Part shown: one piece after another, positions 365 through 62,954 of the stretch
Layout: each line of letters begins with the position of its first letter
How positions within the stretch are numbered: position 1 is the first letter of the stretch
Source: Actinomycetales bacterium
GTDB taxonomy: Bacteria; Actinomycetota; Actinomycetes; Actinomycetales; Dermatophilaceae
Length of the DNA: 64,000 bases
Assembly (NCBI GenBank): GCA_038237075.1
Contig: JBBRZC010000001.1
Coordinates: forward strand, 2,959-66,958
Direction of reading: 5' to 3'
The notes under the pieces: model-generated
What the model saw: only the letters and a program-made list of their open reading frames with translations
Told to the model about the DNA's origin: nothing
The model's database searches: none
Program-made: the position numbers and the translations under genes

Positions 365-1537
365 GTGGAGCAGCCGTCCCATCCGTCCGAACCCGCCGCC
401 CCGCCCGAGGAGCACTGGGCGGGCACGACGGCGACGGCGGCGCCCGAGGCCTCGCCCGCTCCTGCCCCCCAGGCGCCCAAGCCGCCCGCGACAGATGAGC
501 CGCCCGCGACAGATGAGCCGCCCGTGGCGCCCGAGCCGCTCCGACAGCCCTCCGGCCCGATCCTCTCCCGCGACGAGGTCGCGTGGGCTCAGGAGGCACT
601 GCACCGGGTCTCGCAGGCGTTCGGCGGCAAGGTCGTCGGCCAGGTGCGCCTCCAGGAGACCCTCCTCATCGGCCTGCTCACCGGTGGCCACATCCTCCTC
701 GAGTCGGTGCCCGGGCTGGCCAAGACCACGGCGGCCTCGACACTCGCCGGCGCCGTGCACGGCAGCTTCAAGCGCATCCAGTGCACGCCCGACCTGCTGC
801 CCAGCGACATCGTCGGCACCCAGATCTACGACCAGGCGAACGCGACGTTCAAGACGCAGCTCGGCCCGGTCCACGCGAACTTCGTCCTGCTCGACGAGAT
901 CAACCGCTCCTCGGCCAAGACCCAGTCCGCGATGCTCGAGGCGATGCAGGAGCGTCAGACCTCGATCGGCGGCACGATCTACCCGCTGCCCGAGCCGTTC
1001 CTCGTCCTCGCCACGCAGAACCCCATCGAGCAGGAGGGCACCTATGTCCTGCCCGAGGCCCAGCTCGACCGGTTCATGCTCAAAGACGTCCTCGACTACC
1101 CGACCCTCGAGGAGGAGGCCGAGGTCCTCTACCGGATCGACGCCGGCGTCTTTCGCGAGGACCAGGCACCGGTCATCGGCATGGACGACGTGCGCCACCT
1201 CCAAGCGGTGACCCGCCGGGTCTACGTCGACCCGGCGATCGTCCGGTATGCCGTGGGCCTGGTCTACGTGACCCGGCACGCCGAGCGCTACATCGACACG
1301 GCGCTCGCCCGGTTCATCGAGTTCGGCGCCAGCCCGCGCGGCAGCATCGCGTTCGTCCAGGCGGCCCGGGCCCGGGCGCTCCTCGCCGGCCGCGACCACG
1401 TCGTGCCCGACGATATCAAGGCGCTGGCCCACCGGGTGCTGCGCCACCGGGTCGTCCTCGGCTTCGAGGCCGTGGCCGAGGACGTCATGGTCGAGTCGGT
1501 CATCGACGCCCTCCTCGCGACGGTGCGCACTCCCTGA
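365..1537 (+). CDS. moxR: MoxR-family AAA+ ATPase
   Basis: Walker A variant ESVPGLAKT, RIQCTPDLLPSD, Walker B LLDEINR, ATQNPIEQEGTY..PEAQLDRF; Pro/Ala-rich N-terminal extension. Confidence 0.95.
   Translation: MEQPSHPSEPAAPPEEHWAGTTATAAPEASPAPAPQAPKPPATDEPPATDEPPVAPEPLRQPSGPILSRDEVAWAQEALHRVSQAFGGKVVGQVRLQETLLIGLLTGGHILLESVPGLAKTTAASTLAGAVHGSFKRIQCTPDLLPSDIVGTQIYDQANATFKTQLGPVHANFVLLDEINRSSAKTQSAMLEAMQERQTSIGGTIYPLPEPFLVLATQNPIEQEGTYVLPEAQLDRFMLKDVLDYPTLEEEAEVLYRIDAGVFREDQAPVIGMDDVRHLQAVTRRVYVDPAIVRYAVGLVYVTRHAERYIDTALARFIEFGASPRGSIAFVQAARARALLAGRDHVVPDDIKALAHRVLRHRVVLGFEAVAEDVMVESVIDALLATVRTP
481..524 (+). repeat. In-frame 18-bp tandem duplication (PPATDE x2) in the moxR N-terminal extension
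   Basis: gccgcccgcgacagatga at 481-498 and 499-516, plus a partial third copy. Confidence 0.8.
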
Positions 1538-1552
1538 CGGGAGGACACCGGC

Positions 1553-2437
1553 ATGGCTGCGCTGCTGACCCGGGTGAAGAGCAAGCTCTTCATCATCGCC
1601 CGCCGCAAGACGTGGGGGCTGCTCGACGGCGAGTACGCCTCGGTCTTCCGCGGACGCAGCCTCGACTACGACGACCTGCGCGACTATGTGCCCGGTGACG
1701 AGGTGCGCGACATCGACTGGAAGGCCACCGCGCGGCATGGGCCGCCGCTGGTCAAGCGCTACGTCGCCACCCGCAGGCAGACGGTCCTGTTCGTCGTCGA
1801 CACGGGCCGCGGCATGGCCGCCAGCGCCGCCGGGGGAGAGGCCAAGTCGGCGGTCGCGATCATGGCCTGCGGGATGCTCGGCTACCTCGCGATCCGGCAC
1901 GGCGACCTCGTCGCGCTCGTCGAGGGCGACGCCGGCCAGAGCCGGCCACATCCCGCGAAGGCAACCGAGGCCCACCTCGAGCGGCTGCTGCGCACCATCG
2001 AGAGACGGACGAGCCTCGCGGGCGCCCCGAGCCGGCTGCGCGAGCAGCTCCAGTTCGTCGCCCGGCACTACCGCCAGCGGCTGCTTCTCGTCGTCGTGGC
2101 CGACGACCACGAGGTCGACGCCGCCGACGAGGTGCTCGTCCGCCGGCTGCACGCGCAGCACGAGATCCTCTGGGTCACCGTGGCGGACGCCGACCCGACG
2201 AGCGCCGGCTCCGGCCAGGACGCCGTCGACGTCGGTGACGACCTCGTGCTCCCGCCGGAGGTGCGCTTCGACGCGCGGCTCCACACGGCATACGCGACCG
2301 CCCTGCAGGCTCGCCGCGAGACCCTCGAGCGCACCCTCGACCGGCTCGCCATCGTCCACGCCCGGGTGGGCCACACGGACGAGGTCATGGGCACAGTGTT
2401 CCGCCTCTTGGAGGGACAGCGCCGCCGTGTCCGCTGA
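1553..2437 (+). CDS. DUF58 domain protein (MoxR-associated)
   Basis: GRSLDYDDLRDYVPGDEVRDIDWKATAR signature; directly after moxR. Confidence 0.92.
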   Translation: MAALLTRVKSKLFIIARRKTWGLLDGEYASVFRGRSLDYDDLRDYVPGDEVRDIDWKATARHGPPLVKRYVATRRQTVLFVVDTGRGMAASAAGGEAKSAVAIMACGMLGYLAIRHGDLVALVEGDAGQSRPHPAKATEAHLERLLRTIERRTSLAGAPSRLREQLQFVARHYRQRLLLVVVADDHEVDAADEVLVRRLHAQHEILWVTVADADPTSAGSGQDAVDVGDDLVLPPEVRFDARLHTAYATALQARRETLERTLDRLAIVHARVGHTDEVMGTVFRLLEGQRRRVR

Positions 2438-6382: not shown

Positions 6383-6387
6383 CCGCG

Positions 6388-6723: not shown

Positions 6724-7605
6724 ATGACCCTCTCGGCGCGGTTCGGCGCCCTTCCCGACGGCCGGCCGGTGACGGCATACACTCTTGTCGCGCAGGGGAG
6801 CCCGCGCCTGCGAGTGTTCGACCTCCGCGCGGCGGTGCAGGCCCTGCGGATGCCCGGGGACCTGGCGGCTTGCGCGGCGGCGACGCGAGCATCGTCCTCG
6901 GCCATGCCGGCGTCGAGGGGTATGCCGCGGAGCCGACCGCGTTCCATGGCGCCGTTGTCGGGCGCTACGCCAACCGCATCGCCGGCGCCCGATTCTCCCT
7001 CGACGGCACGCTCCACCGGCTGGACGCGTACGAGGGCGACACCTGCCAGCACGGGGGCGCCGACGGCTTCCACCGACGGAACTGGTCGCTCGTCGCCGTC
7101 GACGAGTCGAGCGTCACCCTCCGGCTCGTGAGCCCGGACGGCGACCGGGGCTTCCCGGGCGAGCTCACCGCCGAGGCGAGGTATGCCGTCGCCCGCGGTC
7201 GCGTCGTCGTCGAGCTCACGGTCACGACCATCGCGCCGACCGTGGTCAGCCTCGCGGGCCACGCCCACTTCAACCTTTGCGGGGGAGGGGCGTGGCTCCG
7301 TCGACGGGCACCTGCTGACGGTCGATACCGACGCCTACCTGCCCATCGACGCGGTGTCGCTCCCGGTGGGAGGCCCGAGCGACGTCCGTGGCACCCCCGT
7401 CGACCTCACCACCCCGGCCGAGCTCGGCGCCCGGTCCGCGACGCGCATCCGCAGGTCACGGCGCCGATACCGGTCAGGGGGACGGCATCGCCCGGGAGAC
7501 GCAGCGGCATCCGACGCGCCGAACCAGGACTGGTTGCCGTCGCCGGTGCCGCGGCCGGGGGAGGCGTACCGGTCCCGCACCAAGTGGCCCCACGGCGCCC
7601 GGTGA
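6724..7605 (+). pseudogene. galM: Aldose 1-epimerase (galactose mutarotase) pseudogene
   Basis: Motifs are split over three frames: FGALPDGRPVTAYTL; GAVVGRYANRIAGARF..QHGG..GDRGFPG..HAHFNL; LPVGGPSDVRGTP..DAPN..PGEAYRS. Frameshifts near 6870 and 7277, more near the 3' end, plus an internal deletion. Confidence 0.85.
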
Positions 7606-9972: not shown

Positions 9973-10407
9973 CTAGCCGTCGGTGCTCGTGACCGCCCAT
10001 TCGGCGGCATCATCGGGGGTCAGGCCGGGGCGAACGCCGACCATCAGGTGCTCGGTGGGCATCGGCTGGACCGCCGAGTCGTAGGTCACGGTGAGGGTCC
10101 AGAAGGCGCTCGACGGGGTGCTGTCGAGGGTCATCGTGGAGATCGACGCCGGGTGGCCGGCGTGCCGGTCCAGCAGCGTCCGGCGCTGCGGGCTCGACTC
10201 GGGCACCAGCCGCTCCAGCGCGGCGCGGTCGCCACCCTGAACGGCGGCCACGTATTCGGCCATGGTTCCCATCGGGGAGGCCGTGGGGGCGTGCGGCCGG
10301 ACGTTCCCGGCGACCAGGGCAACCGCCAACCCGAGCGCGGCCACCACAAGGACTGCGACGAGGACCGTATGCCGCGCGCGAGCGGGCGGTGGCGCCGTGA
10401 TCGTCAT
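9973..10407 (-). CDS. Hypothetical secreted or membrane-anchored protein
   Basis: N-terminal basic plus hydrophobic segment (RARHTVLVAVLVVAALGLAVALVAG). Confidence 0.6.
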   Translation of the reverse strand: MTITAPPPARARHTVLVAVLVVAALGLAVALVAGNVRPHAPTASPMGTMAEYVAAVQGGDRAALERLVPESSPQRRTLLDRHAGHPASISTMTLDSTPSSAFWTLTVTYDSAVQPMPTEHLMVGVRPGLTPDDAAEWAVTSTDG

Positions 10408-33809: not shown

Positions 33810-35059
33810 GCACGGGGGCGGACTCCGCGCCGGCCGGCTCCGGAGCAGGAGCGGCCGCCGAGGACCTCGTCGGGTCCGAGGCGGTCGTCGACGTCGGCGC
33901 GGTCGCCCACGGCGGGCACTGCGTCGCCCGCCATGAGGGCCGGGTGGTCTTCGTGCGCCACGCTCTCCCCGGCGAGCGGGTCCGCGTGCGGATCACCGAG
34001 GGCCGGCCCCGGGACCGCTTCCTGCGCGGCGACGCGGTGGAGATCCTCACTCCCTCGCCTCACCGGGTCACGCCGCCTTGCCCGTATGCCGGGCCGGGAC
34101 GCTGCGGCGGCTGCGACTTCCAGCACGCGAGCCTGCCGCACCAGCGTGAGCTCAAGACCGCGGTCGTGCGCGAGCAGCTCTCGCGGCTCGCCGGCCTCGA
34201 CGTCGACGTCGCGGTCGAGCCGGTCCCGGGCGACGTGCACGGCCTGCGCTGGCGCACCCGGGTCGAGCTCGCGGTCACGCCCGAGGGACGTCCGGGGCTG
34301 CGCGTCCACCGCTCGCACGAGATCGTGCCCGTCGACGACTGCCTCATCGCGTCGCCACGGGTGGTCGAGTCGGGCGTCCTCGAGACGGTGTGGACCGGGT
34401 GCACGGCCGTCGACGTCGTCGCCGCGACCGAGCCCGACGACGCCGTGGTCGTGCCCGTCCCCGAGCACCGGGTGCCGCACGTCGTCGAGCACGTCGAGGT
34501 CGGCGGGTGGTCGGAGGACTACCGGCTCAGCGCCCGCGGCTTCTGGCAGGTGCACCCGGGTGCCGCCGCGACCTATGTCGGTCAGGTGCTCGCCGAGCTC
34601 GCGCCGATGCCGGGGGAGCGGGCCCTCGACCTGTACGCCGGGGTGGGCCTGTTCGCGCTCGCGCTCGCCGACGCGGTGGGCCCGCAGGGCGCGGTGCTCG
34701 CGGTCGAGGCGGACCGCCGCGCCGTCGAGGACGGGACCCGCAACGCGCAGGACCGGGCCCAGGTCGAGTACCGGGGCGGACGGGTCGACGCGGTGCTGCG
34801 GTCGTTGCGACGCCAGGGGATCGGCGCCGACCTCGTCGTCCTGGACCCGCCGCGCACGGGTGCGGGGCGGTCCGTCGTCGCCGACCTGGCCGCGCTGCGC
34901 CCCCGCGCCGTCGCCTACGTCGCGTGCGACCCGGCCGCCCTGGCGAGGGACACGGCATACCTGGGTGTGGCGGGCTACCGCCTGCGGTCGCTGCGCGCCT
35001 TCGACGCCTTCCCCATGACCCACCATGTCGAGTGCGTCGCGGTCTTCGAGCCGGCGTGA
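33806..35059 (+). CDS. TRAM-domain RNA (uracil-5)-methyltransferase (RlmD/TrmA-like)
   Basis: TRAM (AHGGHCVAR..FVRHALPGE), CPY..CGGC 4Fe-4S motif, FWQVH, DLYAGVG, LDPPRTG, YVACDP, FPMTHHVE. Confidence 0.92.
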   Translation: MSTGADSAPAGSGAGAAAEDLVGSEAVVDVGAVAHGGHCVARHEGRVVFVRHALPGERVRVRITEGRPRDRFLRGDAVEILTPSPHRVTPPCPYAGPGRCGGCDFQHASLPHQRELKTAVVREQLSRLAGLDVDVAVEPVPGDVHGLRWRTRVELAVTPEGRPGLRVHRSHEIVPVDDCLIASPRVVESGVLETVWTGCTAVDVVAATEPDDAVVVPVPEHRVPHVVEHVEVGGWSEDYRLSARGFWQVHPGAAATYVGQVLAELAPMPGERALDLYAGVGLFALALADAVGPQGAVLAVEADRRAVEDGTRNAQDRAQVEYRGGRVDAVLRSLRRQGIGADLVVLDPPRTGAGRSVVADLAALRPRAVAYVACDPAALARDTAYLGVAGYRLRSLRAFDAFPMTHHVECVAVFEPA

Positions 35060-35068
35060 GCGGGTCTG

Positions 35069-35755
35069 TCAGGCGAGGACCCGCCTGGCCGTGACCGGGC
35101 CCGCGGCCCGCAGCTCGGCCGCCTGGGCGAGGTAGAGCTCGGCGCAGGCGAGGGCGTCGCCGAGGGCGTGGTGGGCCCGGTAGGTGGGCAGGCCGTGGCG
35201 GCGGCGCGCCTGGGACAGCCGCAACGTGCCCTCGCGCGGGTCGGGCTGCCAGGCCGACGTCGTCAGCCGGCGCTCCAGCTCGAGGGTGTCCACCGCCGGG
35301 CAGGGCAGGTCGGCGCCCCACGTGCGCCCGCAGGCGACCGACAGGAAGGTGGTCTCGATCCGCGCGTGGTGGGCGAGGAGCACCCGACCGGCCAGCGCCT
35401 GGAGGAGCTCGGCGAGCGCGTCCGGCAGCGGGAGCCCCCCGGCGACGAGGTCGTCGCCGAGCCCGTGGAACGTCGCACTCTGGCCGACCGGTGCCGAGCC
35501 CTGCACGAGGAGGTGGCGGGCGCCCGAGAGCTCGATGCGCAGACCGTCGACGGGGACGAAGCCGATCGAGACGATGCTGGCGGTGCGCACGTCGAGGCCC
35601 GTCGTCTCGAGGTCGACGGCGAGGAGCCGCAGCTCGCGAAGTTCCGTCGCCGGGCCTGGTGGGGGCGTCGCGAGGAAGTCGCGCAACGGTCCCGGCGAGG
35701 CGGCCCGCAGCGCCTCTCGGCGCTGCCGGTCCGGCGAGCGGGGCCACCACCTCAT
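35069..35755 (-). CDS. DEDDh 3'-5' exonuclease family protein
   Basis: Exo I VDLETTGL, Exo II-like LAHHARIE, Exo III HHALGDA. Confidence 0.88.
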   Translation of the reverse strand: MRWWPRSPDRQRREALRAASPGPLRDFLATPPPGPATELRELRLLAVDLETTGLDVRTASIVSIGFVPVDGLRIELSGARHLLVQGSAPVGQSATFHGLGDDLVAGGLPLPDALAELLQALAGRVLLAHHARIETTFLSVACGRTWGADLPCPAVDTLELERRLTTSAWQPDPREGTLRLSQARRRHGLPTYRAHHALGDALACAELYLAQAAELRAAGPVTARRVLA

Positions 35756-35765
35756 CGGTGAGGGC

Positions 35766-37634
35766 TCACGAGATGTACTGCAACGGGTAGCGGCTCGCGA
35801 GGACCGACTGGCCCGAGCGGATCACCGCGAACGCCTCCCGCAGGTGGCGCTTCTCGAAGGTGCTCAGCTCATCGGGGGCGACGTGGTTGTCGGGGTCGAG
35901 CCCGGAGGCCACCTGGGCGGCCTGGTGGCGCAGCCGCACGGACGAGATGAACTCGAAGGCGTCGAGCAGGTCGGCACCGGCCTCACGGCTGAGCAGGCCG
36001 GCGGAGACGACGGCGTCGATCCGAGCGCGGGTGGTGACGGCGCCCGACCCCACGGAGAGGGCGTGAACCCGGGCCAGCTCGACGAGGGCACCGACGCCCC
36101 CGCGCTTGATGTCGAGGGTGTTCTTGTGCGCGCCCTTCCGGTCCAGCACGAACCCCCGGAAGAACCCCAGCGGGGGCTCGTGCTCGACCGCGTGCTTCGC
36201 GAGATGGGCGAGGAAGCTGGTGCTCGTCGGAGCGAGGCCGTTGACGTAGCTCATGAGGGAGTCGACGAGGTTCGGGTCGCCGTGCACGGCGCGCATGTCG
36301 AAGAAGATGCTGGCCCGCATGACGGCGTCGGAGGTGGGCTCGGTGAGCCAGGTCGCGAAGGACCGTCGCCACGCGGCCAGCGGCTGGCGCCACGACGGGT
36401 TGGTGGCCATCACATCACCGCGGCACCGGGGGTACCCGCAGACGTCGAGCCCGTCCGTGACCGCGCGCGCCAGCGCCTCGAACCAGGTCGCGTCCTGCTC
36501 GGTGACGTCGTCGTGCAGGAGGATCGCGTTGTCCTGGTCGGCGGCGAGGGCCTGCTCCGACCTGGCCCGCGACCCGAGGACGACCCAGCAGTAGGGGACC
36601 GGCGGCGGCCCGAGCTCGGCCTCGGCGAGCGCGAGGAGGCGTCGCTCGACGGCGTCCCCCACCGCGGTGACGACCCGGCTGATCTCGTCTGCCGAGGCGC
36701 CCTGACGCACGAGTCCCTCGACGACCGAGGGCAGGCGTCCGGCGACCCGGGCAACCCCGGCGAGGTCGGGCTGCCTGGCCACGTCGCCGACGAGGTGGAC
36801 GGGGTCGGCCCGCTCGACCCGGAGCAGGTCGGTGGCCGTCACGACGCCAACCACGCGCCCGGCGTCGAGGACGGGCAGGTGATGGATGTTGCGGGTGACC
36901 ATGTCGAGGAGCACGTCGACGGTGCGAGACTCGGCGCTGGCGCAGACGGGGTCGCGGGTCATCACGGCGTCGACCGGGTCGTGCGGCGAGCGCTCCGCGG
37001 CGACGACGCGGTTGCGCAGGTCGCGGTCCGTGACGATGCCCACGAGGTGGTCGCCGTGCATGACGAGCAGGCACGAGACGCCACTGGCTGCCATCTGCCG
37101 GGCCGCGTCGAGGATCGAGACGCCGGTCGCGACGGTGACGGGATCGCGCCCGATCAGGTCGCTGACCCGGCCGCGCAGCCCGGAGGCCCCCGTCGGGACC
37201 TGCTGCTGGGCGGTCACGGCGGCTGCGAGCCGGTCGCGTCGCTGCTCGTCGAAGAACCGGGCGAACCCGGGGTGCGCGCGCGAGACCGCGCCGAAGGCGT
37301 CGGCGCCCAGGAGGAGCACGAGGCTGTCCTCGATGGCGGTGACGGTGAGGGTCGACGGCTGGCCGCTGGTCATCGAGGTGGACCCGAAGCAGGAGCCCGC
37401 GGCGCCGCGGTCCACGAGGGCGCCGTGCTCGTCGGTGATGTCGACGGCCCCGGAGCGCACGACGTAGAGGTGGTCGTTGCGCTGCCTCAGGGCGATGACC
37501 GGCGTCCCCCGGCGGACGTACTCGACGGCGAACCGCGGCGCCAGCGCCTCGAGGTCGGGGTGGGACAGGTCGTCGAAGGGAGGGTGCTGGGCCAAGAAGT
37601 CCGTGATCTCGCTGAGCTCGACGTCCAGGGCCAT
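35766..37634 (-). CDS. cNMP-binding / CBS / DUF294 putative nucleotidyltransferase
   Basis: N-terminal cNMP domain (VVRSGAV), CBS pair (GIVTDRDL, HHLPV), NTase motif LGSRARSEQ..DQDN, DIKRGG. Confidence 0.9.
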   Translation of the reverse strand: MALDVELSEITDFLAQHPPFDDLSHPDLEALAPRFAVEYVRRGTPVIALRQRNDHLYVVRSGAVDITDEHGALVDRGAAGSCFGSTSMTSGQPSTLTVTAIEDSLVLLLGADAFGAVSRAHPGFARFFDEQRRDRLAAAVTAQQQVPTGASGLRGRVSDLIGRDPVTVATGVSILDAARQMAASGVSCLLVMHGDHLVGIVTDRDLRNRVVAAERSPHDPVDAVMTRDPVCASAESRTVDVLLDMVTRNIHHLPVLDAGRVVGVVTATDLLRVERADPVHLVGDVARQPDLAGVARVAGRLPSVVEGLVRQGASADEISRVVTAVGDAVERRLLALAEAELGPPPVPYCWVVLGSRARSEQALAADQDNAILLHDDVTEQDATWFEALARAVTDGLDVCGYPRCRGDVMATNPSWRQPLAAWRRSFATWLTEPTSDAVMRASIFFDMRAVHGDPNLVDSLMSYVNGLAPTSTSFLAHLAKHAVEHEPPLGFFRGFVLDRKGAHKNTLDIKRGGVGALVELARVHALSVGSGAVTTRARIDAVVSAGLLSREAGADLLDAFEFISSVRLRHQAAQVASGLDPDNHVAPDELSTFEKRHLREAFAVIRSGQSVLASRYPLQYIS

Positions 37635-37733
37635 GACGCCATCCTCGCAGCACCCGAATACCCAGACCCCGGGATCTGCGCGATGCTGGGTACGGACAGG
37701 CTGCCGCCTCGCTCGAGACAGGCGCGCGAGCGG

Positions 37734-37762
37734 TATGCTTAGATATCTTGATGTCAAGATAG
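37734..37762 (+). promoter_or_regulatory. acnA promoter: -10 TATGCT followed by the palindromic operator TATCTTGA-TG-TCAAGATA
   Basis: TATGCT 37734-37739; perfect 8-bp arms at 37744-37751 and 37754-37761; RBS gaagggag before GTG 37785. Confidence 0.7.
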
Positions 37763-37784
37763 TTTCGCGATGAAGGGAGCCCTC

Positions 37785-40586
<2,802 letters not shown>

Positions 40587-47805: not shown

Positions 47806-47820
47806 GGCGCTCTCTCCTTG

Positions 47821-47862
47821 CGGACGGCATACAGGCCGGGGGACTGGCCCGTATGCCGTCCG
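47821..47862. repeat. Hairpin formed by an inverted pair of CGGCATAC octamers between the binding-protein and permease genes
   Basis: cggacggcatac (47821-47832) ... gtatgccgtccg (47851-47862), perfect 12-bp arms. Confidence 0.85.
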
Positions 47863-47880
47863 GTCGCGGTCGGGGGTCGG

Positions 47881-49143
47881 TCAGCCCGCGAGGGCTGCAG
47901 TGCCGTTCTTCTGCAGCTCGGCGAGCATCGCCTTCGGGTCGCCGCCCTTGCTCAGCGTCGCCATGCTGGAGTTGAACTTCTTGATGACCGGGTCGAGCCC
48001 GGGGGCGTTGACCGCGCCCTGGCCATAGTCGCCGCCCGCGGCGAACGGCACGTCGGCGGGGTACTGGGTCTTGAACGCGGCGATCCCGTCCTCGGTTGAG
48101 GGCATCGGGCCGAACGCCTTGGTGAAGGCGAGCTGCTGGTCGGTGCTGGTGAGGAACTTGACGAGGTCTACGGCCGCGGCCTGGTGCTGGCTCTTGGCGG
48201 CGATGGCCCAGCAGTTGCTGAACTCCAGCGTGCCCTTGCCCCCGGGGCCCGTGGGCAGCTCGACCACCTTGAACTTGACGCCCGGGTAGTCCTTGGACAT
48301 CGCGCCCTTGATCCAGTTGCCCTCGATGGTCATCGCTCCGATGGCCTTGCCGAAGGCCTCGCCGCCCCAGCCTGCGGCGGGCGTCGTGTCGGTGTTGAAC
48401 TTGAGCGAGCCGTCGGTCATCAGCTTCTTGATCTGCTCGAGGCCGGCAAGGTTGCCGGGCTGGTCGGCCGTCATCTTCTTGCCGTCGGCCGAGATGACCC
48501 AGCCTCCGGCCTGCTTCATGAAGGCACCGCCGCGGTTGATGTCGTTGCCGATGACGAGCCCGGTGACCGGTCCGCTGGTGAGCTTCTTGGCGACGGTCTC
48601 GAGCGAGGCCCAGTCCTTGGGCACGTCGGCGTCGGTGAGCCCGGCCTTGGTCCACAGGTCGGTGTTGATGACCAGCGCGAGCGTGGAGTAGTCCTTCGGC
48701 GCGCACTGGAGCTTGCCGTCGTAGGTGAAGGTCTGCACCAGCGTCGGCAGGAACTTCATGCTGCCCATCTGGTCGCCGTAGGCGTAGAGGTACCCGGCCT
48801 TGGCGAAGTCACCGATGCGGGTGTCCGCGCCGTAGAAGACGTCCGGCGGTGCGCCGCCCGCGAAGGCCTGGCCGAGCTGCTGGTCCATGTTGGCGGCTGC
48901 GGTCACCTCGACGGTGTTGCCGCTCTTCTTCCCCCACGCGGCGGTGGCCGCCTTGACCGCGTTGGTCTCCGCATCGCCCGAGCTCGCGATGAGCATCTTG
49001 AGGGCCACTGGTCCCGAGGCCGGGGCCTGGGTGGCCGCCGGCTGGCTGAAGCCACCGCCGCTCGAGCAGGCCGCCAGAGCCAGCGTCCCGACGGCGCCGA
49101 GGGCCACGGCGGCACTCATCGACCGAGTCTTCCTTGACTGCAT
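47881..49143 (-). CDS. Sugar ABC transporter substrate-binding lipoprotein
   Basis: Lipobox LAAC; PPDVFY, YDGKLQCAPKDYS, AMTIEGNW; RBS caggag. Confidence 0.93.
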   Translation of the reverse strand: MQSRKTRSMSAAVALGAVGTLALAACSSGGGFSQPAATQAPASGPVALKMLIASSGDAETNAVKAATAAWGKKSGNTVEVTAAANMDQQLGQAFAGGAPPDVFYGADTRIGDFAKAGYLYAYGDQMGSMKFLPTLVQTFTYDGKLQCAPKDYSTLALVINTDLWTKAGLTDADVPKDWASLETVAKKLTSGPVTGLVIGNDINRGGAFMKQAGGWVISADGKKMTADQPGNLAGLEQIKKLMTDGSLKFNTDTTPAAGWGGEAFGKAIGAMTIEGNWIKGAMSKDYPGVKFKVVELPTGPGGKGTLEFSNCWAIAAKSQHQAAAVDLVKFLTSTDQQLAFTKAFGPMPSTEDGIAAFKTQYPADVPFAAGGDYGQGAVNAPGLDPVIKKFNSSMATLSKGGDPKAMLAELQKNGTAALAG

Positions 49144-52634: not shown

Positions 52635-54506
52635 GTGGCACTGCTCGACTCGATCGACGGACCGGACGACCTCAAGGCCCTACGGCCTGCGGAGCTGCCC
52701 CTCCTCGCCCAGGAGATCCGGGACTTCCTCATCACCTCCGTCTCGCGCACAGGCGGCCACCTCGGCCCCAACCTCGGGGTCGTCGAGCTGACGATCGCCA
52801 TCCACCGGGTGTTCGACTCGCCCATGGACACGGTCGTCTTCGACACGGGCCACCAGGCCTACGTGCACAAGCTGCTCACCGGCCGGCACGACTTCGCCCG
52901 GCTCCGGACCAAGGGTGGCCTGTCCGGCTACCCGAGCCGGGCCGAGTCCGAGCACGACGTCGTCGAGAACTCCCACGCCTCCACGGCCCTCTCCTGGGCC
53001 GACGGCATCGCCAAGGCGCGCCGGCTCACCGGCCGGCGCGACCGGCATACCGTGGCCGTCATCGGTGACGGGGCGCTGACCGGCGGGATGGCCTGGGAGG
53101 CGCTCAACAACATCGCCGCCGACAAGGACCTGCCGCTCGTCATCGTCGTCAACGACAACGCGCGGTCCTACGCCCCGACGACCGGAGGCCTCGCGGACCA
53201 CCTCGCGACGCTGCGGATGACCCGCGGCTACGAGAACTTCCTCGACTGGGGCAAGAACGCCCTGGCACGCACGCCGGTCATCGGGGGCGCGATGTATGGC
53301 GCGGTCCACGGGATGAAGAAGGGCCTCAAGGACATCGTCGCGCCGCAGGGAATGTTCGAGGACCTCGGGCTGAAGTACCTCGGCCCCATCGACGGCCACG
53401 ACGAGCCGGCCGTCGAGGCGGCCCTGCGCCGGGCCCGGGCGTTCGGCGGCCCCGTGCTCGTGCACGTCCTGACCCAGAAGGGACGCGGCTACGACCTCGC
53501 CCGCAAGGACGAGGCCGACCGGTTCCACGCGGTTGACAAGATCAACCCCGAGACCGGCCTGCCGCTGCAGGTCAAGGGGCGGATCTGGACGGACGAGTTC
53601 AGCGACGCCCTGCTCGACGTCGCCGCCCGGCGCGACGACGTCGTCGCCATCACTGCGGCAATGCTCATCCCCGTCGGGCTGCGGGAGTTCGCCGAGCGCT
53701 ACCCCGACCGGGTCTTCGACGTCGGCATCGCGGAGCAGCACGCGGTCACCATGGCCTCGGGCCTCGCCTTCGGCGGGTTGCACCCGGTGGTCTGCGTCTA
53801 TGCGACGTTCCTCAACCGGGCGTTCGACCAGCTGCTCATGGACTGCGCCCTGCACCGTGCCGGCGTGACGTTCGTCCTCGACCGGGCGGGGGTCACCGGC
53901 ACCGACGGGGCCTCGCACAACGGCATGTGGGACATGACCGTCACCGGCATGGTGCCGGGGCTGCACCTGACCGCCCCGCGCGACGCGCACGAGCTGGCCC
54001 GGGCTCTCGACGAGGCGGTCGACATCGCCGACGCCCCCAGCGTGATCCGCTTCTCGAAGCAGAACCCGCCTGCTCCGCTGCCGGCGCTGCGCACCGCCGG
54101 CTCCGTCGACGTCCTCTTCGAACCCGGGCCGGCGCAGGTGGACCTCCTCGTCGTCGGGCTCGGCGAGATGGCCACGACGGCGATGTCGGTGGCCGAGAAG
54201 CTCACAGCACAGGGTCACTCGGTGCGGGTCGTCGACCCGCGCTGGTGCCTGCCGGTCAGCGTCGACCTCGTCGACCTCGCCCGCGGCGCCGGCGCGGTGG
54301 CCGTGATCGAGGACAACCTCGTCATCGGGGGTGTCGGGTCGCAGGTGACCCAGGCCCTGCGCGAGGCGGGCCTCCAGGTGCCGGTGCACCTGCACGGCAT
54401 ACCGAAGCGGTTCCTCGAGCATGCCTCGCGCGGTGAGGTCCTCGAGGAGATCGGGCTGACACCCGACGCGATCGCCGACCGGCTGACCCAGGCGCTCGGC
54501 CGCTGA
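52635..54506 (+). CDS. dxs: 1-deoxy-D-xylulose-5-phosphate synthase
   Basis: [42 protein letters not shown]. Confidence 0.97.
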
Positions 54507-57814: not shown

Positions 57815-57825
57815 GTCTCAGGGAT

Positions 57826-57866
57826 ATCAGATGCCGGAGAGATCAGATGCCAGAGAGATCAGATGT
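57826..57866 (+). repeat. 16-bp tandem repeat (about 2.6 copies) duplicating the murA stop region
   Basis: atcagatgccggagag / atcagatgccagagag / atcagatgt. Confidence 0.85.
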
Positions 57867-59394
57867 CGCGGAAGACCTCGATGGTCGCGCCGAGGGCGTT
57901 GAGCCGGTCGGCGAGGTCCTCGTAGCCACGGTTGATGACGTAGACGTTGCGCAGCACCGAGGTGCCGGGCGCGGCCAGCATGGCGAGGAGGACGACGACG
58001 CCGGGACGCAGCGCCGGCGGGCACATGACCTCGGCGGCGCGCCACCTGGTCGGCCCCTCGATGAGCACCCGGTGCGGGTCGAGGAGCTGCACCTTGGCGC
58101 CGAGCTTGGTCAGCTCGGTGAGGTAGATGGCCCGGTTGTCGTAGACCCAGTCGTGCAGCATCGTCGTGCCCTCGGCCATCGCCCCGATGAGGGCGAAGAA
58201 GGGGAGGTTGTCGATGTTGAGGCCGGGGAAGGGGAGCGGGTGGATCTTGTCGATCGGCGCGGTCAGCGGTCCGGGGATGGTCGTGAGGTCGACGAGCCGG
58301 GTCTTGCCGTTGGCGGACATGTACTCCGGGGTGAGGTCGTACTTCATGCCCATGCCTTCGAGGGTGGCGAGCTCGATCTCCATGAACTCGATGGGGACCC
58401 GGCGGATGGTGATCGACGAGCCGGTGACGACGGCCGCGGCCAGCAGGCTCATCGCCTCGATGGGGTCCTCCGAGGGGAAGTACTCCACGTCGACGTCGAT
58501 CGTGCCCACCCCGTGGACGGTCAGCGTGGTGGTGCCGATGCCCTCGATCCGCACGCCGAGCTTGACGAGGAAGAAGCAGAGGTCCTGGACCATGTAGTTC
58601 GGGCTCGCGTTGCGGATCACCGTGACGCCCTCGTGCCGCGCCGCGGCGAGCAGGACGTTCTCGGTGACCGTGTCGCCGCGCTCGGTGAGCACGATGGGCC
58701 GCTGCGAGCTGCGGCTCGGGTCGCGCACCGCCTCGTAGAAGCCGTGCGTCGCCGTGACGTCGAGGCCGAAGTGGCGCAGGGCGGCCATGTGCGGCTCGAC
58801 GGTCCGGGTGCCGAGGTCGCAGCCGCCGGCATAGGGCAGCCGGAAGGAGGGGTGGTCGTGGAGGAGCGGCCCGAGGAACATGAGCACGGTGCGGGTGCGC
58901 CGCGCGGCCTCGACGTCGATCCCTTCGAGGTCGAGGACGGCGGGTGGGGTGATCTCGAGGTCGCTGCTGTCGGGCAGCCAGCGGGTACGGACACCGATCG
59001 AGCTGAGGACCTCGATGATCCGGTTGACCTCCTCGATCCGGGCGAGCTGGCGCAGCGTGGTGCGCCCGCGGTTGAGCAGGGACGCGCAGAGCAGGGCGAC
59101 TGCGGCGTTCTTCGACGTCTTGACGTCGATCGCGCCGGTGAGCTGGGTGCCGCCGACGATGCGCAGGTGCTGCGGGCCGGAGTGGCCGAGCGAGACGAAC
59201 TCCGAGTCGAGGCTCGCGCCGATGCGGGCCAGCGTCTCCAGGCTGAGGTTCTGCTGGCCCTGCTCGATGCGCACCACGGCGCTCTGGCTGGTGCCCAGCG
59301 AACGGGCCAGCTCTGCCTGGGTCAGACCCTTGTGACGGCGTGCGTCGCGGATCAGGGATCCGATGCGCACCAGGTAGGTATCAGTGACGGTCAT
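57859..59394 (-). CDS. murA: XRE-type HTH fused to UDP-N-acetylglucosamine 1-carboxyvinyltransferase
   Basis: N-terminal IRDARRHKGLTQAELARSLGTSQSAVVRIEQG; MurA motifs KNAA, GGCDLGTR (active Cys), DPIEA, INRGYE. Confidence 0.92.
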   Translation of the reverse strand: MTVTDTYLVRIGSLIRDARRHKGLTQAELARSLGTSQSAVVRIEQGQQNLSLETLARIGASLDSEFVSLGHSGPQHLRIVGGTQLTGAIDVKTSKNAAVALLCASLLNRGRTTLRQLARIEEVNRIIEVLSSIGVRTRWLPDSSDLEITPPAVLDLEGIDVEAARRTRTVLMFLGPLLHDHPSFRLPYAGGCDLGTRTVEPHMAALRHFGLDVTATHGFYEAVRDPSRSSQRPIVLTERGDTVTENVLLAAARHEGVTVIRNASPNYMVQDLCFFLVKLGVRIEGIGTTTLTVHGVGTIDVDVEYFPSEDPIEAMSLLAAAVVTGSSITIRRVPIEFMEIELATLEGMGMKYDLTPEYMSANGKTRLVDLTTIPGPLTAPIDKIHPLPFPGLNIDNLPFFALIGAMAEGTTMLHDWVYDNRAIYLTELTKLGAKVQLLDPHRVLIEGPTRWRAAEVMCPPALRPGVVVLLAMLAAPGTSVLRNVYVINRGYEDLADRLNALGATIEVFRDI

Positions 59395-59400
59395 ATCCCG

Positions 59401-59423: not shown

Positions 59424-59489
59424 GCCGGGGCAACGGCTCCTCGCGGCGCGCCGCGGGCGGGGTGGCGAGCGTGCCCCCGAGACAAAGGA

Positions 59490-59527
59490 CGAGGTATGCC
59501 GCGAAGGCGAGCTCGCGGCATACCTCG
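59490..59527. terminator. Hairpin formed by an inverted pair of CGGCATAC octamers downstream of fadB
   Basis: cgaggtatgccgcga-aggcgagc-tcgcggcatacctcg, perfect 15-bp arms, 20 bp past the stop at 59548. Confidence 0.8.
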
Positions 59528-59547
59528 CCGTTCTGGGGGGTTCCCGC

Positions 59548-61692
59548 TCAGCCGGGGACGCTGGCGGCACCGGGCGGCAGGAACCGCCGTCCGGTGACCT
59601 TCTCGGCGATGCCGGTGCGGTCGAGCAGGGGGGTGACGCCGCCGTTCCAGAACTGGAAGCCGGCGCCCGTGATCATCGCGAGGTCGAGGTCCATGGGGGC
59701 CTGGACGACGCCCTCGTCGAGCATCCGGCGGGCCTCGTCGGCGATGACGGTCAGGACGCGCTCGCGGATCTCGTCGGATGAGAGGGCCACGGGGTGCTCG
59801 GGTGTGGGCATCAGGGCGCGGACCTCGGGGTCGACGACGGGCCGGCCCTCGGGCCAAATGTAGAACGCTCGCTTCCCGGCGGCGACCACCCGGCGAAGCC
59901 CCTCGGAGACGTAGAACCGGTCGGGGAACGCGGCGGCCAGGCTTTCGTTGTTGTGCAACGCGATCGCCGGGCCGACGAGGCCGAGCAGGACGAACGGAGG
60001 CATCGGAGCCAGCCCCGCGAGGGCGGCGTCGGCCACCTCGATGGGGGTGCCCTCGTCGACGACCCTGGCGACCTCGCCCATCCACCGCCCGAGCAGCCGG
60101 TTGACGATGAACGACGGCGAGTCGTTGACGAGGATGCAGGTCTTGCGCAGGGTCTTCCCGGTGGCGAAAGCCGTCGCGAGTGTCGCGTCGTCGGTGTGCT
60201 CGCCCCGGACGATCTCGAGCAGCGGCATCACCGCCACGGGGTTGAAGAAGTGAAACCCGACGACCCGCTCCGGGTGGGCGAGGTCCGCGGCCATCGCGGT
60301 GATCGACAGCGAGGACGTGTTCGTGGCGAGGACGCAGGTGTCGGAGACGACTGCCTCGACCTCGCGCAGGACCGTCCTCTTGACGGCCAGCTCCTCGAAG
60401 ACGGCCTCGATGACGAAGTCCGCGTCGGCGAAGCCGGCCTTGGAAGTGGACCCGGTGACCAGGGACGTGAGCCGGTTGGCCCGGTCGTGGGTGAGCCGGC
60501 CCTTGGCGAGCAGCGCGTCGACCTCGGCGTGCACGGAGGCGACGCCGTGGTCGACCCGGGCCTGGTCGAGGTCGGTGAGGACGACCGGCACCTCGAGCCG
60601 CTGCGCGAAGAGGAACGCGAGCTGGGTCGCCATGAGCCCGGCACCGACGATGCCGACCTTCGTCAGGGGTCGGGCGAGCGCCTTGTCGGGCGCGCCGGCC
60701 GGCCGCTTGGCGCGGCGCTGCACGAGGTCGAAGGCGTAGAGCCCGGCTCGCAGCTCGTCACCCATGACGAGGTCGGCGAGCGTCTCGTCCTCGGCGGCGA
60801 ACGCCTCGTCGCGCGTCGCGGTGCGGGCGGCGGCGACCAGCTCGAGGGCTCGGTAGGGCGCCGGCGACTGGCCGCCCGTCTTGAGGTCGACGACCTTCCT
60901 GGCGCCCTTGACCGCGGCGGCCCACTCGGCCTCGTCGCGCGTCACCTCGGCTCGCTCGACCCGGACCTCACCGGCGACCACCGCGGCGGCCCAGCGCAGC
61001 GACTCCTCGAGGAAGTCGGCCGGCTCGAACATCGCGTCGGCGATCCCGAGCGCGAGGGCCTGGGGGCCGGTGAGCATCCGGTTGGTGTTCATCGGGTTCT
61101 CGATGATGACCTTGAGGGCGTTGGACGGCCCGACGAGGCGCGGCAGGAGGTAGCAGCCGCCCCAGCCGGGCACGAGGCCGAGGAAGGTCTCGGGCAGTGC
61201 CACGGCCGGCACGCCCGCGGACATCGTGCGGTGGTCGCAGGCCAGGGCGATCTCGACCCCGCCGCCCATGGCCGCCCCGTTCACGAAGGCGAAGGTGGGC
61301 ACGCCGAGGTCCATGATCGCCGCGAAGGCGCGGTGCCCGGCCCGGGCCCCGGCGAGGGCCTGGTCGCGGGAGCGGATGCCGGAGACGGCCAGGAGGTCGG
61401 CCCCGACGGCGAAGACGAAGGGCTTGCCGGTGATGCCCACGGCGTGGACCTCTCCGGCCGCCACGCGTGCGGCGATGCCGTCGAGGGTCTCCTGCAGGCC
61501 CGCCACGGTCGCGGGCCCGAAAGTGTTGGGTTTGGTGTGGTCGAAGCCGTTGTCGAGGGTGATCAGGGCAAGCGTGCCGACGCCGCCGGGCAGGGCGATG
61601 TCCCGGACCGGGGTGTGGGTGACGACCTCGTCGGGGCGGGCGGCAGGCGCGGTGTCGCGCCCGGCGGTCGTGGTGGTCGTGGCGGTCGTCAT
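59548..61692 (-). CDS. fadB: Fatty acid oxidation multifunctional protein (enoyl-CoA hydratase / 3-hydroxyacyl-CoA dehydrogenase)
   Basis: FAVGADL, MGGGVEIALACD, PETFLGLVPGWGG, GIVGAGLM, IEAVFE, NTSSL, GFHFFNP. Confidence 0.95.
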   Translation of the reverse strand: MTTATTTTTAGRDTAPAARPDEVVTHTPVRDIALPGGVGTLALITLDNGFDHTKPNTFGPATVAGLQETLDGIAARVAAGEVHAVGITGKPFVFAVGADLLAVSGIRSRDQALAGARAGHRAFAAIMDLGVPTFAFVNGAAMGGGVEIALACDHRTMSAGVPAVALPETFLGLVPGWGGCYLLPRLVGPSNALKVIIENPMNTNRMLTGPQALALGIADAMFEPADFLEESLRWAAAVVAGEVRVERAEVTRDEAEWAAAVKGARKVVDLKTGGQSPAPYRALELVAAARTATRDEAFAAEDETLADLVMGDELRAGLYAFDLVQRRAKRPAGAPDKALARPLTKVGIVGAGLMATQLAFLFAQRLEVPVVLTDLDQARVDHGVASVHAEVDALLAKGRLTHDRANRLTSLVTGSTSKAGFADADFVIEAVFEELAVKRTVLREVEAVVSDTCVLATNTSSLSITAMAADLAHPERVVGFHFFNPVAVMPLLEIVRGEHTDDATLATAFATGKTLRKTCILVNDSPSFIVNRLLGRWMGEVARVVDEGTPIEVADAALAGLAPMPPFVLLGLVGPAIALHNNESLAAAFPDRFYVSEGLRRVVAAGKRAFYIWPEGRPVVDPEVRALMPTPEHPVALSSDEIRERVLTVIADEARRMLDEGVVQAPMDLDLAMITGAGFQFWNGGVTPLLDRTGIAEKVTGRRFLPPGAASVPG

Positions 61693-62954
61693 GGTCGGGC
61701 GCCCTTCTCGTCGCGGGTCGGCGCACTCGTCGTCTCGGTGCCACCGCCTTCGGTGCCGTAGTCGGGGTGGTGGGGGTTCTCCCAGACCACCGCGCCGCCC
61801 ATGCCGATCCCGACGCACATCGCGGTGAGGCCGTAGCGGACCTCCGGGCGCTCCTCGAACTGGCGGGCGAGCTGGGTCATGAGCCGCACGCCGGACGACG
61901 CGAGCGGGTGCCCGACGGCGATGGCCCCGCCGTACGGGTTCACGCGGGGGTCGTCGTCGGCGATGCCGAAGTGTTCGAGGAAGGCGAGCACCTGCACGGC
62001 GAAGGCCTCGTTGAGCTCGAAGAGCCCGATGGCGTCGATGCCCAGCCCGGCCTGCCTCAGGGCCTTCTCGGTCGCCGGCACCGGGCCGATGCCCATGACC
62101 TCGGGCTCGACGCCGACGAAGGAGTAGGAGACGAGGCGCATCCGCACCGGGAGCCCCAGCTCGGCAGCGGCCGACTCGCTGGCGAGCAGGCAGGCGGTCG
62201 CGCCGTCGTTGAGCCCGGCGCTGTTGCCGGCGGTGACCCGGCCGTGGGCCCGGAAGGGGGTCTTCAGGGCGGCGAGGTCCTCGAGGGTCGTCCCGGGGCG
62301 CGGCGGCTCGTCGACCGTCGCGAGGCCCCAGCCCCGCTCCACGTCACGGGTGGCGACGGCGACGAGGTCGGGCTGGATCTGGCCGTTCGCGTAGGCCTTG
62401 GCCAGCCGCTCCTGGGACTCCACGGCATACGCGTCGCAGCGCGCCCTGGTGAGCGTGGGGAAGCGGTCGTGGAGGTTCTCGGCGGTGGCGCCCATGACCA
62501 GCGCCGAGGGGTCGACGATCCTCTCGGCGAGGATCCGCGGGTTGGGGTCGACGCCCTCGCCCATCGGGTGGTGCCCCATGTGCTCGACCCCGCCGGCGAC
62601 CGCGACGTCATAGGCGCCGAACGCGATGGCCGAGGCGGTGTTGGTCACGGCGGTCATGGCGCCGGCGCACATCCGGTCGATGGAGTAGCCGGGGGTCGTC
62701 CTGGGCAGGCCGGAGAGGAGCGCGGCGGTGCGGCCGAGGGTCAGGCCCTGGTCGCCGATCTGGGTCGTCGCGGCGATGGCGACCTCCTCGACCCGCTCGC
62801 GGGGCAGCTCGGGGTGGCGGCGCAGGAGCTCGCGGATGCACCGGATGACGAGGTCGTCGGCACGCGTCTGGGCGTAGATGCCCCGGTCACCGGCCTTGCC
62901 GAACGGGGTGCGCACCCCCTCGACGAAGACGACCTCACGCAGGGAGCGGGGCAT
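61689..62954 (-). CDS. fadA: Acetyl-CoA acyltransferase (thiolase)
   Basis: RMCAGAM (Cys), VTAGNSAGLNDGA, ELNEAF, GGAIAVGHP, MCVGIGMG. Confidence 0.96.
   Translation of the reverse strand: MPRSLREVVFVEGVRTPFGKAGDRGIYAQTRADDLVIRCIRELLRRHPELPRERVEEVAIAATTQIGDQGLTLGRTAALLSGLPRTTPGYSIDRMCAGAMTAVTNTASAIAFGAYDVAVAGGVEHMGHHPMGEGVDPNPRILAERIVDPSALVMGATAENLHDRFPTLTRARCDAYAVESQERLAKAYANGQIQPDLVAVATRDVERGWGLATVDEPPRPGTTLEDLAALKTPFRAHGRVTAGNSAGLNDGATACLLASESAAAELGLPVRMRLVSYSFVGVEPEVMGIGPVPATEKALRQAGLGIDAIGLFELNEAFAVQVLAFLEHFGIADDDPRVNPYGGAIAVGHPLASSGVRLMTQLARQFEERPEVRYGLTAMCVGIGMGGAVVWENPHHPDYGTEGGGTETTSAPTRDEKGARP

Follow-up and report, generated by a model that had tools for sequence, protein, structure and literature searches.

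Why does a single asymmetric octamer recur throughout a 64-kb stretch of actinobacterial DNA, and what might keep it there? An exact search of this whole stretch, hereafter the window, found 47 copies of CGGCATAC (in its other-strand form, GTATGCCG), 25 on the + strand and 22 on the − strand, in agreement with the number and places given in the initial annotation. Only about 1–2 copies would be expected: the mononucleotide expectation is 2.1, matching the earlier rough figure of about two, and dinucleotide-preserving shuffles of the window gave 0.86 copies on average and never more than 4. Every GGCATAC heptamer in the window is completed to the full octamer (47 of 47), as are 47 of the 49 GCATAC hexamers; one-mismatch variants, described as few in the initial annotation, number 37, 19 of which are the codon-favoured CGGCATCC. 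Adjacent copies are in opposite orientation in 29 cases and in the same orientation in 17. The extent of the series and its largest gap are as follows.

1246..62430, unstranded: span of the 47 octamer copies, by exact search
34961..40161, unstranded: longest octamer-free stretch of the window, 5.2 kb

The + strand coordinates of the initial annotation refer to the start of GGCATAC, which lies one base inside the octamer.

Abundance of the octamer and its cost to coding DNA

The excess extends beyond the window. The source genome (G000), a MAG of a soil actinobacterium, carries 2,539 copies in 3.42 Mb, 1,248 forward and 1,291 reverse, and the mean density per contig is 0.74 ± 0.21 per kb over all contigs, or about one copy per 1.3 kb. 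Throughout the genome the eight positions are fixed to an equal degree and one-mismatch neighbours are at background. Outside the octamer, positions −2, −1 and +8 are weakly biased, giving a soft extended form CA-CGGCATAC-C, and there is no other conserved flank. A dispersed repeat of the REP/MITE type was rejected on the basis of these flanks and of the location of 77% of the copies inside genes. The density is 1.35/kb in intergenic and 0.65/kb in coding DNA genome-wide.

Within genes, the octamer is imposed against codon and peptide preference. The 1,958 coding copies compare with 139 after within-gene synonymous shuffling and with 61 expected under word-free codon usage, a 14- to 32-fold excess over codon-preserving nulls. 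Disappearance of the excess under a dicodon-preserving null, which the initial annotation had named as a possible outcome, was not observed, since it survives both codon-preserving and dicodon-conditioned nulls: the flanking bases that complete the octamer accompany the rare dicodons TAT-GCC, GCA-TAC, GGC-ATA and GTA-TGC in 86–94% of cases and the synonymous control dicodons in 4–16%. Across four frames, 58–62% (about 60%) of the protein-permissive sites carry the word. As a result, 52.6% of the ATA codons of the genome sit inside an octamer, and the 852 nnG-TAT-GCC-Gnn copies account for 43.8% of its TAT codons; nCG-GCA-TAC copies number 628 genome-wide. The peptides encoded by the word are also over-represented, with observed/expected ratios of 1.68 for RHT versus 0.80 for the reversed THR and 1.89 for VCR versus 0.86 for RCV.

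By our own gene calls, the window contains 23 copies of the form nnG-TAT-GCC-G, 9 nCG-GCA-TAC, 3 GGC-ATA, 2 CGG-CAT-AC and 10 intergenic or gene-boundary copies. These four coding frame classes bear out the earlier claim that codon usage is overridden in several frames. The frame examples that had been cited are also right, except for the copy at 10367, which falls outside any called gene.

1246..1253, − strand: example of the nnG-TAT-GCC-Gnn class (Tyr-Ala, rare TAT), the commonest coding class
1246, 5129, 6920, 7181, 12542, 15005, 15230, 16275, 19215, 20272, 22258, 23979: nnG-TAT-GCC-Gnn copies 1–12 of 23
24980, 26688, 28613, 29611, 34084, 43269, 43763, 51788, 56250, 56968, 62423: nnG-TAT-GCC-Gnn copies 13–23 of 23
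2286..2293, + strand: example of the nCG-GCA-TAC class (x-Ala-Tyr, rare GCA)
2286, 10642, 11717, 12975, 17396, 31783, 34953, 40162, 43568: the nine nCG-GCA-TAC copies
54395..54402, + strand: nnC-GGC-ATA-Cnn class (Gly-Ile, very rare ATA), in the dxs-like ORF 52635-54506
28309, 56491: further nnC-GGC-ATA-Cnn copies
53043..53050, + strand: CGG-CAT-ACn class (Arg-His-Thr), in the same dxs-like ORF
41126: further CGG-CAT-ACn copy

Both dxs sites recur elsewhere, the octamer lying at the same position as the 54395 copy in L001 and L021 and at that of the 53043 copy in L002, L021 (Nostocoides) and L059 (Knoellia).

Between genes, the octamer often occurs as inverted pairs. Among pairs within 60 nt in the genome, 107 are inverted and 13 direct, and the window itself has two intergenic hairpins; pairing of the word into hairpins had been proposed in the initial annotation. 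Folded with ViennaRNA, the region 47800-47885 gives −49.7 kcal/mol on the + strand and −40.6 on the − strand, and the region 59470-59550 gives −51.2 and −47.4 kcal/mol.

47821..47862, unstranded: inverted pair, 47825 (+) and 47851 (−), intergenic hairpin between ORFs 46678-47805 (−) and 47881-49119 (−)
59490..59527, unstranded: inverted pair in reverse order, 59494 (−) and 59516 (+), intergenic hairpin between ORFs 57859-59394 (−) and 59548-61692 (−)
6773..6780, + strand: single intergenic or gene-boundary copy
10367 (−), 14868 (−), 29159 (+), 40612 (+), 46576 (+): other single intergenic or gene-boundary copies

Family range and strand layout

The octamer is clade-restricted and has dialects. 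Most of the 73 genera sampled from Dermatophilaceae, a family to which many soil taxa and the principal phosphate removers of wastewater plants belong, are enriched in CGGCATAC, which is at background in the 16 other families of the order that were sampled. The congener G020 uses the dialect CCGCATAC, G076, a sister of Humibacillus, uses CGGCATCC, and one genus of the family (G092) has the unrelated word CGAAGGGG in the same layout. Each of these three words occurs on both strands, alternating, and genomes scored as non-enriched for CGGCATAC may likewise have words of their own. In a full-text search of the literature, the octamer appeared only in primers and adapters and was undescribed for family members or as an uptake or over-represented word. 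A scan of viral contigs for the inverted octamer pair yielded only chance matches in low-GC contigs and no phage of these hosts.

The two strands are used equally. Counts over contiguous stretches of 400 kb are balanced (317/303 and 112/120), per-contig counts are balanced and under-dispersed, and neither replication-strand skew nor polarity was found per contig or over 400 kb, which agrees with the earlier claim that there is no such skew. An apparent strand polarity on large contigs, with only '+' among the matches listed, was discarded, as the densities fit a listing of forward matches only and direct counts are balanced.

The strand-unbiased dispersal described by the initial annotation therefore holds for the counts, but it does not extend to blindness to orientation. 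In G000, pairs in the same orientation occur at 0.15–0.2 of the random frequency below 200 bp and at 0.35–0.55 up to 1 kb, and return to about 1 beyond 1.5 kb, so the exclusion reaches about 1–1.5 kb, whereas pairs in opposite orientation stay at about 1.0 of random at all distances. The ratio of same- to opposite-orientation pairs at 100–1000 bp is 0.34, and the same-orientation exclusion was replicated in G132 and G102, which belong to two other genera. Measured by the same pair statistic on less than whole genomes, this ratio is 1.0–1.08 at 200–1000 bp and 0.77 at 100–200 bp for the Neisseria DUS, and 0.95 at 100–1000 bp for the Pasteurellaceae USS. Since same-strand copies avoid each other, a putative reader seems to recognise the octamer on one strand at a time. 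An asymmetry between convergent and divergent pairs at 0.5–1.5 kb was rejected as a feature of the layout: with FR denoting the order + then − and RF the order − then +, FR/RF is 495/390 in G000, was not replicated in G132 (286/254) and is reversed in G102 (31/49).

Possible readers of the octamer

We suggest, tentatively, that the octamer is a self tag recognised on single DNA strands while DNA is imported and recombined. CGGCATAC/GTATGCCG would then be a lineage-specific mark of 'self', kept near saturation by biased transmission in homologous DNA exchange. Incoming DNA would be made single-stranded at the ComEA/ComEC import step or beyond it in these single-membrane actinobacteria, and a putative component acting in import, or early in single-strand processing, would prefer the strands that bear the word. 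Entry would be open to either strand of a fragment, a + copy serving one strand only and a − copy only the other, and one copy per strand in each imported or recombined tract would suffice. Because such a component would favour word-bearing strands and one copy would be enough, word-bearing alleles would be inherited preferentially, and molecular drive, which was proposed earlier for USS and DUS, rather than selection, would maintain the word, running until each strand has a copy every ~1–3 kb. Shifts in the specificity of the reader may give rise to dialects and word replacements. The uptake or recombination signal put forward in the initial annotation is thus viable, but only in a strand-specific form.

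Two points of background count against the self-tag reading: we know of no demonstration of natural transformation in Dermatophilaceae, and of no single-membrane bacterium with sequence-specific uptake. A search for competence and Tad genes, which had been recommended, found ComEC and a Tad-type ATPase in G000, with an unannotated ORF upstream of ComEC in the usual position of comEA. However, ComEC and the ATPase occur throughout the family and are intact also in lineages without the octamer, so gene content does not discriminate and gives the import reading no positive support. AdnAB gene pairs are likewise present in all 35 genomes tested, G000 included; as ComEC, the Tad-type ATPase (T2SSE) and AdnAB are all universal, their presence or absence is uninformative.

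The main alternative, conceivable though less likely, is that the octamer acts like Chi. A helicase-nuclease, most plausibly AdnAB, would recognise the word in the unwound 3′-ended strand and turn from degradation to recombination, by which self DNA would be protected and word-bearing incoming linear DNA favoured. Chi sequences are 5–8 nt long, active in one orientation only and recognised on one strand by an enzyme in motion along the DNA. The octamer resembles the Chi of RecBCD and AddAB in being an over-represented, asymmetric, taxon-dependent word, and it would likewise mark 'self' and be read on a single strand. A reader that responds to the first site met from an end predicts an asymmetric 8-nt word with redundancy in the same orientation and independence in the opposite one, and this reading fits the two-point statistics equally well. 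The universal AdnAB pairs and the variation of the words between lineages, as of Chi between taxa, are also in its favour. Every described Chi, however, is co-oriented with replication and mildly enriched, whereas the octamer is unskewed and ~30-fold enriched, and its ~60% saturation against codon bias is far above anything known for Chi. Moreover, other AdnAB-bearing actinobacterial families of the order, screened for this word alone, show no enrichment. AddB and RecC read Chi via an inactivated helicase domain. RecBCD was excluded as the reader, since RecC is missing from G000 and many enriched genomes and its presence is uncorrelated with enrichment. An eroded AdnA ATPase was rejected as the signature of a Chi reader, because most enriched lineages have kept the AdnA ATPase motifs whole, and loss of the Walker A lysine is scattered over word-bearing and word-free lineages alike, showing no correlation. 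The only universal candidate would be AdnAB, for which no Chi is known and the existence of one is an open question (PMC5314763).

A one-way motor or pump might instead load or start at the octamer, as in a conjugative translocase resembling FtsK or TraB or at a relaxase-like nick site, and export or import the DNA on one side of it; we regard this as improbable. FtsK, SpoIIIE and TraB read oriented 8-bp words (KOPS, SRS and TRS), which the octamer resembles, and orientation does matter in the pair data of G000. But such a site predicts redundant convergent or divergent pairs, with a reproducible contrast between the two arrangements, and the opposite-orientation pairs are near random, with a sign of FR/RF that varies between genomes. 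KOPS and SRS point towards the terminus, unlike the octamer, which is unpolarised both within contigs and across 400 kb; lacking replichore polarity, it is not a KOPS.

The DUS of Neisseriaceae (GCCGTCTGAA and its dialects), whose reader is the minor pilin ComP, and the USS of Pasteurellaceae (core AAGTGCGGT) are among the closest known systems. Like them, the octamer is a short exact word at about one per kb, equal on both strands and without replication skew, written into genes at the cost of codons and peptides, twice as dense between genes, often paired into hairpins, restricted to a family and split into lineage dialects. The likeness to DUS and USS that had been proposed therefore stands for abundance, dialects, proteome distortion and terminator pairs, but not for orientation-blindness. 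A surface or pilus receptor that binds the word as double-stranded DNA in either orientation would make + and − copies equally redundant, and the ratio of 0.34 for the octamer contrasts with ~1.0 for DUS and 0.95 for USS. As these controls show no orientation-specific exclusion, a ComP-like double-strand uptake receptor is a poor model, which we consider very unlikely, and the analogy with uptake signals holds only for features of the abundance type. The octamer also differs from them in its single-membrane, actinobacterial host and in being an 8-nt word with only soft flanks.

Equally doubtful is an origin through a methyltransferase with mismatch or very-short-patch repair (a drive like that of HIP1 or Dcm-Vsr), or as a strand-nicking entry site for post-replicative repair. 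The cyanobacterial HIP1 (GCGATCGC) is similarly a hyper-abundant octamer with quasi-periodic spacing across a large clade, and a strand-specific nick site that is needed on both strands would also be spaced evenly in each orientation. HIP1 is palindromic and the target of known methylases, whereas CGGCATAC is asymmetric and its orientation matters. The methylation or patch-repair origin raised by the initial annotation accounts neither for the kb-scale exclusion of same-orientation copies nor for the equal fixation of the eight positions with one-mismatch neighbours at background, and selection acting on repair at second order would hardly drive saturation to ~60% in the face of codon bias. 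HIP1 has been tied to methylases, with quasi-periodic spacing, and recently also linked to transformation (10.64898/2026.06.24.733823).

Finally, although high-GC genomes are rich in codon-driven frequent words and the octamer forms part of the Illumina P7 sequence (CAAGCAGAAGACGGCATACGAGAT), a by-product of codon, dicodon or dinucleotide composition, a short mobile repeat and adapter contamination are refuted by the excess over codon-preserving nulls and flank bases conditional on the full octamer, by the lack of conserved flanks beyond −2, −1 and +8, by extended adapter matches in only 3–12 copies, and by the presence of the word in frame at shared gene positions across independent assemblies of many genera.

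Consequences for self-DNA discrimination

To our knowledge, genome-wide 'self' words are found in very few lineages, namely Neisseriaceae, Pasteurellaceae, cyanobacteria and, as Chi, some phyla. All of these have been central to understanding which DNA bacteria select for recombination, and the octamer adds the Actinomycetota. There is not quite an even chance that it is the first single-strand-read tag favouring self DNA, either as the first uptake or processing signal of a single-membrane bacterium or as the first Chi-type signal of AdnAB. In either case, an evolvable specificity would explain both the dialects and the unrelated CGAAGGGG in one genus. The layout, measurably unlike that of DUS and USS, leads to the testable prediction that the word is read on single strands, each having a copy every ~1–3 kb, and bears both on self-DNA discrimination in single-membrane import and on a possible Chi of AdnAB. 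The word and its dialects could be used in designing transformable DNA for the hard-to-manipulate members of the family, and would provide a cheap marker for binning and for detecting foreign DNA. In the source MAG, no long word-free islands were found, and the depletion of the octamer in foreign genes is weak, with an occupancy of 0.37 in the genes of the lowest 5% GC3 versus ~0.5 elsewhere.

Abundance of the octamer and its coding context

Exact search of the window recovered 47 copies of the octamer CGGCATAC (25 + and 22 −) at the places read by eye in the initial annotation; as had been claimed, each of the 47 GGCATAC heptamers is part of a full octamer. The mononucleotide expectation is 2.1 copies, and dinucleotide-preserving shuffles averaged 0.86, with at most 4. 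Among the 37 one-mismatch variants, 19 are the codon-favoured CGGCATCC. The enrichment is not confined to the window: the genome that holds it, G000 (3.42 Mb in 247 contigs, 72% GC), carries 2,539 copies (1,248 forward, 1,291 reverse), or 0.74 per kb, with little difference among contigs. The core is sharp and flank bias is limited to positions −2 (C, 66–67%), −1 (A, 46–54%; T, 2–3%) and +8 (C, 52–66%), and a longer repeat unit is therefore ruled out as the source. Genic and intergenic copies share this bias, which defines a soft extended form, CA-CGGCATAC-C.

The word is also contained in the Illumina P7 adapter. However, extended adapter matches are rare in G000 (just 3–12 copies), and the word lies in frame at shared gene positions of independent assemblies; CGGCATAC is therefore not contamination, and the G000 assembly itself is not adapter-contaminated. 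GTATGCCGT matches nine adapter bases, and aggressive 3′ adapter trimming with a short minimum overlap may clip reads of word-bearing genomes.

Gene calls made in this analysis (3,032 genes, 88% coding) place 1,958 copies within genes, compared with 139 ± 12 after within-gene synonymous shuffling and 61 when codons were redrawn from word-free usage. The density is twofold higher in intergenic DNA (1.35 per kb) than in coding DNA (0.65 per kb). Several reading frames had been proposed, and six were found.

Reading frames of the octamer in G000 genes
nnG-TAT-GCC-G: 852 copies
nCG-GCA-TAC: 628 copies
GGC-ATA: 182 copies
ATG-CCG: 124 copies
CGG-CAT-AC: 109 copies
GTA-TGC-CG: 61 copies

In four frames, 58–62% of the sites at which the protein permits the word synonymously are occupied; occupancy is lower in the Met-Pro (37%) and ATA (19%) frames. 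The word contains 52.6% of the genome's ATA codons and 43.8% of its TAT codons. The dicodons TAT-GCC, GCA-TAC, GGC-ATA and GTA-TGC are accompanied by the completing flank bases in 86–94% of cases, compared with 4–16% for synonymous control dicodons. The enrichment thus outlasts dicodon conditioning, and the refutation envisaged in the initial annotation, that it would vanish under such a null, fails. Beyond codon choice, the word also bends the proteome: the word-encoded peptide RHT has an observed/expected ratio (O/E) of 1.68 (reversed THR, 0.80), VCR one of 1.89 versus 0.86, and YA[VADEG] peptides one of 1.41 versus 0.97. Occupancy this close to saturation, in the face of codon bias, speaks for biased transmission (drive) rather than for weak selection for efficient repair.

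Strand layout and its reading

The per-contig +/− counts in G000 are more even than binomial (chi-square 77.6, 193 degrees of freedom), and of the neighbouring pairs 1,593 are in opposite and 701 in the same orientation. This arises because same-orientation pairs are depleted and opposite pairs are not: the latter occur at about 1.0 of random at every distance, save for a hairpin excess below 30 bp.

Same-orientation pairs in G000, as a fraction of random placement
Below 200 bp: 0.15–0.2
200–750 bp: 0.35–0.45
750–1000 bp: 0.54
1–1.5 kb: 0.82, and about 1 further out

Same-strand gaps have a coefficient of variation of 0.63, compared with 0.95 under random placement. Within genes, positions are uniform in both orientations, and orientation in G000 does not track GC skew. 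The layout was replicated in two further genera, over 400-kb stretches of G132 (1.55 per kb; 217 same and 402 opposite adjacent pairs) and G102 (0.58 per kb; 75 and 156), and the exclusion length grows with the mean spacing of the word. The counts of 317/303 and 112/120 in these stretches bear out the earlier statement that the word is strand-unbiased. A convergent-over-divergent excess of opposite pairs, present in G000, was not reproduced in them.

Orientation-blind behaviour is expected of double-strand receptors. In the control sets, whose loci were picked for containing an inverted pair (a choice that, at longer distances, raises the same and the opposite counts alike), the same/opposite ratio was 1.08, 1.00 and 1.04 in successive bins from 200 to 1000 bp for the Neisseria uptake word DUS (78 loci, 591 kb, 847 DUS) and 0.95 over 100–1000 bp for the Pasteurellaceae word USS (66 loci, 500 kb, 488 USS), whereas it was 0.12–0.49 by bin and 0.34 overall for CGGCATAC in G000. 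DUS and USS are therefore orientation-blind and CGGCATAC is not. The DNA-uptake-like reading first suggested thus holds for the abundance-type features but not for this behaviour.

The layout is exactly what would be predicted for a single-strand reader with the strands handled apart and one copy per tract. Such a reader would see the word on one strand only and would deal with each strand by itself, a single copy sufficing for every tract handled. Two known kinds of process treat single strands like this: one is the import of transforming or transferred single-stranded DNA together with its first processing steps, the other the scanning of the 3′ strand by an end-resecting helicase-nuclease, as with Chi. 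We tentatively favour, as the most likely reading, a self tag read on the single strand and acting in DNA import and recombination. A Chi-like signal for the actinobacterial helicase-nuclease AdnAB ranks second and seems rather unlikely: the layout resembles that of Chi, but replication skew and a RecBCD reader are lacking, and loss of the AdnA Walker A lysine does not follow the word, so that an eroded Chi reader of the AddB type gains no support from it. A one-way process from the site (a pump or loading site) would make one opposite arrangement redundant too, which is not seen, and an orientation-blind reader, making both orientations equally redundant, is contradicted by the layout.

Candidate readers

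RecC is absent from G000 and many enriched genomes, and some non-enriched genomes have it; this excludes RecBCD as the reader. AdnAB pairs are universal among the genomes examined, and no Chi is known for AdnAB (PMC5314763). In AdnA alignments drawn from samples L137–L172 and G000 contig C169, the Walker A lysine is replaced (GTGT/GTGR/GSGL/GTGS) in G132, G066, G165, G082, G188, G110, G048 and G092, a loss scattered over word-bearing and word-free lineages alike. The AdnB motifs are invariant, and there are two AdnAB-like loci in each of G132 and G043. All genomes examined have a Tad-type secretion ATPase, with a single one in G000, and ComEC is present in 148 of 151 genomes.

Import-related features in G000
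C9:17190-19631: ComEC
Upstream of ComEC: ORF of 391 aa at the usual comEA position

Taxonomic range and dialects

G000 falls within Dermatophilaceae as GTDB defines the family. The nearest relatives of the dxs-like protein of the window are from uncultured MAGs, followed by Intrasporangium, Terrabacter, Ornithinibacter and Humibacillus. Of 24 sampled congeners, 23 are enriched for the word (0.09–0.74 per kb), the exception being G016 (19 copies in 4.6 Mb). Across 150 Dermatophilaceae genomes it is enriched in most of the 73 genera, reaching 5,422 copies in 3.6 Mb, and is at background in the remainder, as it is in the 16 sampled other families of the order. A tree of 35 genomes, built on AdnA and AdnB together, intersperses lineages with and without enrichment, which implies an ancient origin and many later losses or switches.

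Sampling of non-enriched genomes at 40–140 kb each showed that several had switched word instead of losing the system. The congener G020 (samples L089–L094, L153) uses the one-letter dialect CCGCATAC at 0.27 per kb, and G076, a sister of G102/Humibacillus (L111, L112), uses CGGCATCC at 1.05 per kb, with 30 opposite and 10 same adjacent pairs. G092, from another genus (L121, L122, L154), lacks CGGCATAC and has the unrelated octamer CGAAGGGG/CCCCTTCG at 0.91 per kb on both strands, in the same layout (28 opposite, 14 same). No such tag word was found in 60 kb of the complete genome G016. CGGCATAC is a genuine and strong signal that spans the family and has dialects, and our literature search found no description of it.

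Several minor features were observed. GTAC is under-represented in G000 (3,897 versus 7,062 expected from a Markov model), CGTACG-containing octamers are 10–20 times rarer per base than in samples of the congeners G015 and G016, and the most avoided hexamer palindromes are TACGTA (O/E 0.19) and ATCGAT (0.26); restriction avoidance is a possible cause, with TAC-to-TAT conversion at word sites as a partial confounder. Two G-rich words of G048 (L097, L098), GTGGAGGG and ATGCGGGG, each occur 10 times forward and 4 times in reverse over 40 kb, possibly as polar KOPS-like words and not as tags like CGGCATAC. The 50 overlapping AAAAAAAA matches in 120 kb of G020 (L089–L094; genome 70% GC) point to one long A tract, possibly an assembly or contig-end artefact. 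Finally, 4.3 kb of G132 without confident ORFs (C1, about 318,000–322,500; offset 218,229–222,498 of the 400-kb sample) falls in the sample's longest word-free gap (7.7 kb; GC 0.655 versus 0.696 sample-wide) and is a candidate rRNA operon.
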